Shown piece by piece: positions 26,178 through 27,515 of a DNA stretch of 64,000 nucleotides (position 1 is the first letter of the stretch; each line of letters opens with the position of its first letter). The notes below the pieces were generated by a model. The model had not been told where the DNA came from. It saw only the letters and a list, made by a program, of their open reading frames with translations, and made no database searches. The stretch is taken from NCBI RefSeq assembly GCF_053078305.1, contig NZ_CP166879.1; one strand, 5' to 3'. A program made the translations under genes and the position numbers.

Positions 26178-26212
26178 AAAACCCCGTTTGTTGGCAGCAA
26201 GCGGGGTTTTGT
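26178..26212 (+). terminator. Hairpin plus U-tract after endolysin
   Basis: CCCCG...CGGGG followed by UUUUGUGUUU. Confidence 0.45.
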
Positions 26213-26243
26213 GTTTCTGACCTTGGATAAGGCAAGGGAGAAC

Positions 26244-26426
26244 ATGGAAAAGTATAAACGAATTCTGTTGAGGTTGACTATGAAAAACGGCCTTGAACTG
26301 AAAGCGCCAGTAACTGATGACATCAGCAGAGCACTGGCTTTTGCTATTAAGTGGGTGGCGGTCGGTATCGCTGTGTCTCCGATGCTGTATGGGCTGGCAA
26401 AACTGGTCATTGCGTTGAAATCGTGA
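26244..26426 (+). CDS. Small membrane protein
   Basis: 60 aa, C-terminal TM; AAGGGAG RBS. Confidence 0.3.
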   Translation: MEKYKRILLRLTMKNGLELKAPVTDDISRALAFAIKWVAVGIAVSPMLYGLAKLVIALKS

Positions 26427-26440
26427 AGGGAGGATTAAAC

Positions 26441-26572
26441 ATGTCAGACAAACTCATAATGCTGGCGAAGATCCTCTGTGTAATCGTCGGCATTTCATTT
26501 TCACTAATGCTGGTTGCTATTTGCTTTTCCACTGCCTGGCGCGTCTTAACTCTGTCAGGGCTGGTGGGGTGA
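26441..26572 (+). CDS. Small membrane protein
   Basis: 43 aa MSDKLIMLAKILCVIVGISFSLMLVAI...; GAAGGGAGGA RBS. Confidence 0.3.
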   Translation: MSDKLIMLAKILCVIVGISFSLMLVAICFSTAWRVLTLSGLVG

Positions 26573-26579
26573 CAGAAAC

Positions 26580-27515
26580 ATGAAATGTGTACTGTATTCC
26601 GGTGACTGTCTTGATGTTATGCCTTCATTACTACCGGGAAGTGTTGACCTGGTTTTATGTGACCCGCCGTATGGAACCATTAAAGGGCTTACACTCCGTA
26701 CATGGGATAAGAGTACGACAGCATGGGACGATGCCTTAAATCCTGAAGATATTTTCACACAGTGCGAACGACTGCTGAGGGTGGGCGGTGTGCTGGTCAT
26801 GTTCAGCCAGGAGCCGCATACAAGCACGATGATTACTCTGGCGGATAAAAACCTGCCGTTTTTATATCGTATGGTGTGGAAGAAGGAGCATTTCCCCAAC
26901 CCGCTTTCAGTAAAAAAAGCACCTGTATCTTTATTCGAGGATATCGTTGTTTTCCGGAAAAAATATGACAGTGAGAAAAACCACCCGCTGAGGGAGTACG
27001 CCCGAAATATCCTTTCTTTCATTGGCCACAGGACAGACAAGGAAGTTAACAAAACACTGGGGCACTGTCGGGCAGAGCATTTTTTTCGCGTGAACACAGT
27101 CCAGTTTTCCCTCTGCTCACAGGATACGTACAACGAGTTAATTAAACGCTTTGGTATCGACCGTATGCCGGGTTTCATGACATATGAAGAAATGTGCAAA
27201 GTGAATTCCGGTTACGGCACTGTGGTTTTTAATCTCCCTCAGGGGAAAAAATACCGCGCAAATATTCTGGAGTACGCGCGGGAGCGGGAGCGATGGCATC
27301 CGACCCAGAAGCCAGTTGCATTACTGGAAGAGCTGATTCAGACGTACAGCAACCCTGGCGACAGGGTACTGGATTTTACTATGGGGAGTGGTTCAACAGG
27401 TGTTGCATGTATCCGGACGGGGAGACGGTTTACCGGAATAGAAAAGGATGACCGGTATTTCGCTGTTGCAAAAAAACGTCTGGAAAAAGAAAACAGTGAA
27501 ATGGTGGTGATATGA
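26580..27515 (+). CDS. DNA methyltransferase (beta-class N6A/N4C)
   Basis: [10 protein letters not shown]-terminal; HPTQKPV and [10 protein letters not shown]-terminal. Confidence 0.8.

Follow-up and report, generated by a model that had tools for sequence, protein, structure and literature searches.

Apparent two-layered cargo, a small-membrane-protein module and an orphan methyltransferase gene, between the endolysin and spanin genes of a Stx-phage-like Escherichia coli prophage

The lysis cassette of a lambdoid, Shiga toxin (Stx)-phage-like, stx-negative Escherichia coli prophage was analysed within a 64,000-nt stretch of DNA (the window; NCBI RefSeq assembly GCF_053078305.1, contig NZ_CP166879.1). 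Between the endolysin gene and the spanin genes Rz and Rz1, at positions 26178–27515, lie a terminator-like hairpin, two open reading frames (ORFs) for small membrane proteins, here called ORF1 and ORF2, and a methyltransferase gene. Comparison with other genomes indicates that this endolysin–Rz interval is a cargo slot holding two independently acquired layers. The explanation we favour, with moderate confidence, is that the slot belongs to the late operon, that its genes are expressed by Q-dependent read-through and that the methyltransferase protects progeny DNA from restriction. The cassette contains the following features.

24311–24526, plus strand: class II (phage-21-type) holin, 71 aa, first gene of the cassette (PHROG 9876 and 20)
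24531–25517, plus strand: DUF1327/YdfR-like protein, 328 aa (PHROG 1085 at 4.8e-115)
25554–26087, plus strand: signal-arrest-release (SAR)-type endolysin (lysozyme), residues 5–27 hydrophobic (PHROG 7, 2.8e-62)
26088–26177, plus strand: untranslated stretch 3′ of the endolysin, conserved in nearly all Stx-type phages
26178–26210, both strands: bidirectional intrinsic-terminator-like hairpin, followed by TTTTGTGTTTCT on the plus strand and TTTTTACTTTTATT on the minus strand
26244–26426, plus strand: ORF1, 60 aa (183 bp), basic at the N-terminus and with a single hydrophobic helix at the C-terminal end (PHROG 1115 at 1.4e-42)
26441–26572, plus strand: ORF2, 43 aa, almost wholly hydrophobic (PHROG 4906 at 2.2e-24)
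26580–27515, plus strand: orphan beta-class amino-methyltransferase, 311 aa (PF01555 at E = 1.9e-32)
27512–27979, plus strand: Rz, inner-membrane spanin (PHROG 13 at 2.3e-76)
27732–27917, plus strand: Rz1, outer-membrane lipoprotein spanin, in another frame within Rz (PHROG 3198 at 1.3e-29)

An earlier note on the same DNA, made from the letters alone (the sequence-only reading), had described a hairpin with a U tract and three extra genes between the endolysin and Rz/Rz1, and all of these elements are present. The overlap that it reported between the methyltransferase stop and the Rz start can be read directly from the DNA (TGA 27513–27515, ATG 27512–27514). By PHROG assignment, the pinholin, SAR endolysin and two-component spanin form a set of four genes in order, on the late strand 3′ of the Q antiterminator gene. 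Relatives annotate a class II holin of 216 bp, and in the Rz1 translation a 15-residue segment is read as the lipoprotein signal. The claim that cargo splits the cassette twice held in part. Both splits exist, but the gene between holin and endolysin is a long-standing resident of such cassettes and not recent cargo: the N-terminal part of its 328-aa product matches YdfR-like families, relatives have variable DUF1327/YdfR genes at this position, and the Qin prophage of E. coli K-12 shows the order essQ–ydfR–rrrQ. A second strong terminator-like hairpin, of 13 pairs (24244–24273, plus strand), lies just 5′ of the holin start, in the region where the Pas small RNAs (sRNAs) are reported in related prophages. 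Together with the hairpin at 26178–26210, it brackets the holin-to-endolysin block with terminator-like structures.

The sequence-only reading had treated the endolysin–Rz stretch as one insertion. Comparison with relatives that lack it, which was proposed there as a check, identifies the stretch as cargo, but as cargo in two layers of different frequency. The part consisting of the hairpin, ORF1 and ORF2 was found in 2119 of 5426 complete E. coli genomes; the matches listed comprise just this part and the start of Rz, often in several prophages per genome. The methyltransferase is additionally present in eight of the 5426 genomes, in one case in an Stx2b prophage of the same layout. The borders of the layers are sharp. 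PhiR12_1 carries the small-ORF module without the methyltransferase, and its homology to the window breaks off at 26579, the base just ahead of the methyltransferase ATG, and picks up again at 27545, 33 nt inside Rz. The Sakai-type Stx1/Stx2 phages carry an antirepressor gene and an ORF2-like gene in the gap between the endolysin gene (R) and Rz, and the homology of antirepressor-type phages to the window ends at ∼26173–26182, the foot of the hairpin. In 321 phage records, the 86–95 nt past the endolysin stop are kept whichever module comes next, and most of these matches span query positions 1–86 or 3–95 alone. E. coli FHI_NMBU_10 combines the antirepressor module with a methyltransferase gene 1 nt different from that of the window, which indicates that the modules recombine freely.

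In K-12 Qin, R abuts Rz; as Qin has neither ORF1 nor ORF2, K-12 was set aside as a source of functional annotation. Foreign origin was not argued from base composition, since the difference between the insert (45–49% G+C) and R and Rz (52–57%) is too small. A possible recombination footprint at the methyltransferase start, where 19 nt resemble the start of Rz (14 of 19 positions; 16 of 23 in the S792 allele), was rejected because other members of the clade lack it, and the resemblance is suggestive only. A long stem after R (26113–26170) is likewise not claimed, its pairing being lost in the PhiR12_1 and S792 alleles.

The methyltransferase matches PF01555 over its full length (residues 22–299 against model positions 1–221 of 221) and PHROG 67 (DNA methyltransferase) at 2.6e-70. 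Its motifs follow the beta-class order, with DPPY towards the N-terminus, a variable helical middle and the FxGxG cofactor motif at 265–274, and DPPY (28–31), HPTQKP (240–245) and GSGSTG (269–274) were invariant in 20 homologues, down to 53% identity. The start was placed at 26580 rather than at the shorter start used in one RefSeq genome because the N-terminal LYxGDC is invariant in the family. A Foldseek search with the structure model returned M1.HpyAVI, M.BceJIV, M.RsrI and CcrM at E values of about 1e-13 to 1e-10. The enzyme is predicted to modify adenine N6 in DNA, a target that DPPY favours without proving it. It is an orphan, having ORF2 and Rz as neighbours and no adjacent nuclease gene; PADLOC returned generic methyltransferase models only, and the NCBIfam scores fall far under every curated cut-off. 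The S792 allele differs at 209 positions (22% of nucleotides) with a ratio of non-synonymous to synonymous substitution rates (dN/dS) of 0.17, and the gene is under purifying selection.

The late operon holds a second beta-class methyltransferase, at 18659–19717, and the same pair occurs in the Stx2b prophage of E. coli 2015C-3121. The two enzymes of the window are 26% identical, and the one in the lysis cassette falls outside the M.EcoGII family. The 18659–19717 enzyme is 98.6% identical to that of phage 1720a-02, which is very similar to the non-specific adenine methylase M.EcoGII (Murray et al., PMC5778455), and it can thus be placed in the M.EcoGII family.

The position of the cassette methyltransferase recurs in other prophages. 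Among sampled homologues of 55–67% identity, every lambdoid context in Salmonella or E. coli places the gene in the endolysin–Rz interval, with variable company; nine other prophage arrangements of these two hosts, one of them P2-like, show this position. In locus L006, the order is endolysin, terminator, methyltransferase, a homologous hairpin, two small membrane ORFs and Rz. L008 and L015 have an ORF1-like gene, the methyltransferase and Rz in succession; in L009–11, L187 and L188 the methyltransferase directly follows the endolysin; and in L184–186 a 77-aa gene stands between these two. A P2-like Salmonella prophage (L012) has a holin, an endolysin, a 45-aa membrane ORF, the methyltransferase and a lambdoid-type Rz, and in a P2-like element of Arsenophonus the homologue directly follows Rz. 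The exceptions to the endolysin–Rz position are a Salmonella diarizonae copy at a prophage end and the virulent phage ep3, where the gene lies by the primase. Scans of IMG/VR and GTDB gave 160 loci, mostly at 30–54% identity. Lysis genes were recognisable nearby in few of them (L015, L121, L109, L156 and possibly L021 and L019), as judged with a tblastn probe that is insensitive to unrelated endolysins. A link between this family and lysis beyond the Enterobacterales was therefore not retained: homologues below ∼54% identity come from many phyla and mostly do not lie near recognisable lysis genes, which makes the link a feature of an enterobacterial subclade. No record in the phage collection reached at least 60% identity over most of the length of the enzyme, and the literature searched contained nothing relevant on a methyltransferase in a lysis cassette. 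Two homologues from the GTDB scan (L112 and L113, 51% identity) lie on Methanosphaera and Methanobrevibacter metagenome-assembled genome contigs from goat gut; if these contigs are correctly binned, a single enzyme family covers a very wide range of hosts.

The junctions between genes are tight. Successive cassette genes are joined by variants of GGTGGTGA-n-ATGA, and the ATGA overlap of methyltransferase and Rz is kept in L004, in L005 and in alleles 22% apart in DNA. In L006, a GGTGGTGA-type junction closes a small ORF (…RWW stop) and leads into the start of Rz; in L008, L012 and L015 the same …RWW stop precedes the methyltransferase start; and in the window the same bases, in another frame, are the last methyltransferase codons (…MVVI stop). 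The overlapping or closely spaced stops and starts, each with a ribosome-binding site for the next gene, indicate that the cargo is built into the operon, and the shared junctions may offer microhomology for cassette exchange.

These observations suggest the following scheme. The first layer is a widespread module of a bidirectional hairpin and one or two tiny single-helix membrane proteins. The second is the orphan methyltransferase, whose insertion site is exactly the gap from the end of ORF2 to the start of Rz and which brought, or rebuilt, the Rz ribosome-binding site within its own last codons. In the lysogen, the hairpin would stop stray rightward transcription and thereby keep ORF1, ORF2, the methyltransferase and Rz/Rz1 silent. 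Late in lytic growth, RNA polymerase modified by Q at pR′ would read through the hairpin, as lambda Q-modified polymerase does at intrinsic terminators, and translation would pass from gene to gene, the methyltransferase being coupled to Rz via the ATGA overlap. The enzyme, presumed active on adenine, would then modify replicated phage DNA before packaging, and progeny would be shielded from restriction in the next host. Late co-expression, which the sequence-only reading had proposed, has the best support: the genes lie on the late strand 3′ of Q, each has its own Shine–Dalgarno sequence, and the overlap is conserved. Since no rightward sigma-70-like promoter was found in 23500–29000, the genes are most likely expressed from the Q-antiterminated late transcript. 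There is precedent in the prophage methyltransferases M.EcoGI and M.EcoGII, which lysogens do not express and which induction is presumed to activate (PMC5778455).

Several points weigh against this scheme. The promoter scan was limited to sigma-70 consensus sites. Confidence in the structure model is moderate (mean predicted local distance difference test score, pLDDT, of 73), and the helical middle domain of the enzyme (∼residues 130–215), although modelled with high confidence, has no solved counterpart, so that the target sequence is not inferable. The M.EcoGII-family enzyme is already present and, if it is non-specific, a second adenine methylase looks redundant. Finally, the portal gene of the prophage is interrupted, and present-day selection on this copy in a defective prophage is doubtful.

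The hairpin admits a different emphasis. It has 15 pairs (6 G–C) and a 3-nt loop, followed by GTGTTTCTGA, and thus combines a stem–loop with a direct U tract as intrinsic terminators do. It ranks first among the terminator-like sites in 23500–29000 (14 sites, against 5.5 ± 2.3 in shuffled sequences), and the spacer between R and ORF1 folds at −49.2 kcal/mol, against −32.9 ± 3.5 after shuffling (z = −4.7). Read from the minus strand, the hairpin has a G+C-rich outer stem of 9 bp and, behind it, a U tract superior to that of the plus strand. The hairpin is kept in the diverged loci L015, L008, L097, L098, L099 and L006 with inner-stem pairs changed on both sides (GTTTG/CAAGC, GATTG/CAGTC, GAACG/CGATC) and the outer stem swapped in L099; RNAalifold counted two pairs with changes on both sides in this small sample of five lineages. 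It is part of the ORF1 module and not of the endolysin, as it precedes ORF1 homologues in four upstream contexts, behind an antirepressor (L097), a GH19 endolysin (L098), tail-fibre genes (L099) and the methyltransferase (L006). No known RNA family was found at the hairpin or spacer, either at the Rfam gathering threshold over the whole window or at E ≤ 10 over 25900–26700. The prophage sRNAs of enterohaemorrhagic E. coli (EHEC) were considered and rejected, since AsxR and AgvB map 3′ of stx and the Pas sRNAs to either side of the sialate esterase gene and ahead of the holin gene; none is encoded between R and Rz.

The hairpin may chiefly terminate a leftward antisense RNA that pairs with the ORF1 ribosome-binding site, the whole forming a self-contained regulatory module. 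We regard this as a serious contender, if a less than even one, and it is compatible with the anti-restriction explanation of the methyltransferase. Such a module would resemble P22 sar/ant or a type I toxin–antitoxin system, and would either shut off ORF1 where it is leakily expressed in lysogens or act on the late transcripts that related incoming phages make. Two predicted features define it.

26251–26280, minus strand: candidate leftward sigma-70 promoter in the 5′ end of ORF1, −35 TAGTCA, 18-nt spacer, −10 TATACT
26166–26244, minus strand: predicted antisense RNA of about 75–80 nt, complementary to the ORF1 Shine–Dalgarno sequence and start, ending at the hairpin

The candidate promoter, ∼40 nt 5′ of the hairpin on the minus strand, is the sole promoter-like site on either strand in the 5.5 kb of 23500–29000, but it matches the consensus at 9 of 12 positions and has an 18-nt spacer. 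A TATACT −10 element with a −35-like hexamer at 16–18 nt is present in all eight of the ORF1 loci examined, including L099, which encodes a different N-terminal peptide, and in each the hairpin follows 65–95 nt downstream of the promoter-like site. At every locus, the minus strand has the better U tract of the two, whereas stem pairs that are G·U on the plus strand in four of five lineages (by manual pairing of the stems) suggest that selection acts on the rightward RNA structure. The first 42 nt of ORF1 are kept at 38 positions in L008, L097 and L098, against 51–60 of 78 and 27–47 of 63 further on. The conserved promoter-like site, hairpin and ORF1 5′ end together lead to the prediction of an antisense RNA of 75–100 nt over the ORF1 ribosome-binding site, but this base conservation could also stem from coding or translation-initiation constraint. 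The predicted RNA folds at −20.2 kcal/mol (z = −3.3) and belongs to no Rfam family (best minus-strand match E = 0.084), and the EHEC Hfq-CRAC (cross-linking and analysis of cDNA) supplement of Tree et al. contains no match to the hairpin sequence.

There is precedent in STnc6030, an antisense RNA encoded in prophage late genes that excludes superinfecting phage (PMC7067206). In P22 sar, hok/sok and STnc6030, a short leftward RNA that starts from a promoter within or beside a small gene covers the translation start of this gene and ends at a terminator, an arrangement that is here predicted only. Like a type I toxin, ORF1 is a small hydrophobic protein, but unlike such toxins, and unlike the P22 sar and hok/sok systems, it lacks a promoter of its own; the 33 nt between the hairpin and its start leave no room for one on the plus strand. 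A 25-nt insertion 5′ of ORF1 in L097/L098 (∼2460–2500) and L008 (∼4800–4830) creates an 8-codon mini-ORF (ATG TGT AGG GAG G.G TGT TCC CTG TGA) whose stop overlaps a GTG start of ORF1; a small GGGA…TCCC hairpin lies there, and the mini-ORF might encode a leader peptide or serve to couple translation.

ORF1 and ORF2 could alternatively act in lysis itself, as accessory factors that tune pinholin timing, release of the tethered endolysin or spanin function; we hold this to be possible but doubtful. Both have a strong Shine–Dalgarno sequence, with GAAGGGAGGA preceding the ORF2 start. The ORF1 start was taken as ATG 26244, with AAGGGAG upstream, and not as GTG 26211 of the program-made ORF, because relatives annotate the 183-bp version and a diverged homologue (L015) keeps the N-terminus. 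Each protein has one hydrophobic stretch of single-helix length (17-residue Kyte–Doolittle maxima of 1.88 and 2.88), like many lysis regulators, and the stop codons of the small ORFs are coupled to the following gene. In each setting that was examined, be it behind R, an antirepressor or a GH19 endolysin or ahead of a P2-type endolysin, ORF1-family genes adjoin Rz or other lysis genes, and this constant company suggests a lysis role. ORF1 is under purifying selection, its S792 allele showing five synonymous and no non-synonymous differences, but ORF2 evolves faster (dN/dS ∼0.45–0.7), with its hydrophobicity retained. The exact ORF2 sequence is found on at least 1000 contigs. No function is assigned to the two proteins in PHROGs, NCBIfam or Pfam: the 121 database homologues of ORF1 are all Escherichia or Salmonella entries labelled ‘hypothetical protein’, none with a Pfam domain, neither small ORF has an NCBIfam match, and PADLOC matched neither them nor the 328-aa and 74-aa ORFs. 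Many lambdoid cassettes, those of K-12 Qin and the antirepressor-type Stx phages among them, do without ORF1/ORF2. ORF1 is moreover frameshifted in some prophages, as in the 2015C-3121 Stx2b prophage that otherwise matches the window (L003, 6145–6329), and many truncated variants exist; many ORF1 relatives are 100% identical over just 63% of the length, which suggests recurrent frameshift.

It is improbable that the methyltransferase gene is decaying, or is carried along without a function, in a prophage that is itself dead. Such decay could be seen in the portal gene split by an 11.7-kb element, the transposase in the tail region, the truncated members (135–234 aa) of the 90% cluster of the enzyme, and the S. 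diarizonae homologue at a prophage end, whose C-terminus is altered. Against it stand the intact ORF, the low dN/dS, the retention of all catalytic residues and the one-nucleotide variant in other genomes. The exact protein, which public databases list as ‘site-specific DNA-methyltransferase [Escherichia coli]’, also occurs on 13 contigs, and an almost identical member of its cluster on at least 1000. Least probable of all, and very unlikely in our view, is an epigenetic regulator of host or prophage genes in the lysogen, like Dam or CcrM: orphan beta-class enzymes such as CcrM do have regulatory roles and CcrM had the lowest E value in a PDB sequence search, over the C-terminal motif region only, but no promoter was found, a strong terminator lies upstream, the gene sits among lethal lysis genes that must stay silent in lysogens, and the related M.EcoGI and M.EcoGII are not expressed in lysogens (PMC5778455).

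The surrounding prophage has the layout of the Stx2b prophage of 2015C-3121, which additionally carries stx2b and whose lysis region is 98% identical to that of the window. Its other late-strand features are as follows.

17522–18094, late strand: Q antiterminator
18659–19717, plus strand: second methyltransferase, 352 aa, M.EcoGII-family, between Q and the tRNAs
19758–20006, late strand: three tRNAs
21647–23629, late strand: sialate-esterase-family gene
28682–31091, late strand: terminase genes, 3′ of the lysis cassette

Related prophages have stx2b between the tRNAs and the sialate esterase gene; in the window, this region (20006–21647) holds instead a 167-aa ORF assigned to PHROG 632, whose label is tellurite resistance, and a match to the sRNA STnc100 (20837–21049). 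The portal gene is split into an N-terminal part (31278–32150) and a C-terminal part (43876–44709), the feature as a whole spanning 31278–44709, and because of this interruption the prophage is called defective. The intervening element of ∼11.7 kb contains an integrase (32299–33540), an antirepressor (33854–34432), isrK and C4 RNAs (35806–35991), a primase-helicase (37215–38624), its own major head protein (40214–41269) and a small terminase (42237–42791), and looks like a capsid-forming satellite similar to phage-inducible chromosomal islands (PICI-like). A 702-aa transposase (PHROG 310; 50184–52292, plus strand) 3′ of the head genes is a further sign of a defective prophage. The isrK and C4 antisense RNA pair is present in two copies of opposite orientation, one adjoining DicF in the immunity region (6689–7176, minus strand) and the other within the inserted element (35806–35991, plus strand). 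The early region also has a hok/sok-type toxin–antitoxin locus (14216–14391, plus strand; Rfam sok, 110 bits).

The arrangement is a variant of well-known lambdoid mosaicism, and its genes are already annotated in RefSeq genomes. It shares its holin, endolysin and spanin families, and their order 3′ of Q, with the phage 21/Stx-phage cassette (S21, R21, Rz/Rz1), from which it differs by the hairpin, ORF1, ORF2 and methyltransferase in the gap; in Stx phages with an antirepressor between R and Rz, the gap likewise holds exchangeable cargo. A review of Stx-phage lysis cassettes contains neither the term ‘methyltransferase’ nor ‘methylase’ (PMC8136144). M.EcoGII and M.EcoGI of E. coli O104:H4 are similarly beta-class (DPPY … FxGxG), orphan, prophage-borne, located in the late region and expected to be silent in lysogens, but their recognition domain differs and genes of this type follow Q, whereas the 26580–27515 gene lies inside the lysis cassette. 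The closest relative from an isolated phage is the DNA methylase of Escherichia phage vB_EcoM-ep3 (Jilinvirus), with 54% identity over 96% of the length and the same domain layout, although that gene lies by the primase and not in a lysis cassette. With M1.HpyAVI, M.BceJIV, M.RsrI and CcrM, the enzyme has the catalytic fold and motifs in common, but at ∼20% identity and with an insert at 130–215 that has no counterpart there, their targets are not transferable.

Classical morons come with a promoter of their own and a terminator behind the gene, and the prophage expresses them. For the cargo described here, no promoter of its own was found and no terminator follows, the sole strong terminator standing 5′ of ORF1. 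It resembles the lambdoid morons (Juhala/Hendrix) in being extra DNA between conserved late genes that is missing in relatives, but differs from them in that its genes are fused into the operon by overlapping or close stops and starts and that the terminator is upstream. Two bolder readings, which we rate as less likely than not, are that the hairpin, the promoter-like site and ORF1 form an undescribed antisense-controlled module and that the home of the methyltransferase clade is the endolysin–spanin junction.

The findings overturn no current ideas and add detail on phage mosaicism. The endolysin–spanin gap of lambdoid phages is a recurrent slot for cargo in operon format. One orphan methyltransferase family has come to occupy it time and again in prophages of Salmonella and E. 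coli, an Stx2b phage among them, and ORF1 and ORF2 are among the commonest uncharacterised genes of E. coli prophage lysis cassettes. If the antisense module is real, thousands of prophages of E. coli and Salmonella would carry it in their lysis cassettes; it would move between phages as a unit and could serve lysis control or the exclusion of related phages. If the methyltransferase clade does belong at this junction in enterobacterial temperate phages, its coupling to Rz would tie DNA methylation to the lysis programme, and, if the enzyme is active, it would change the passage of phages, and of the toxin genes that some of them carry, across restriction barriers between strains.

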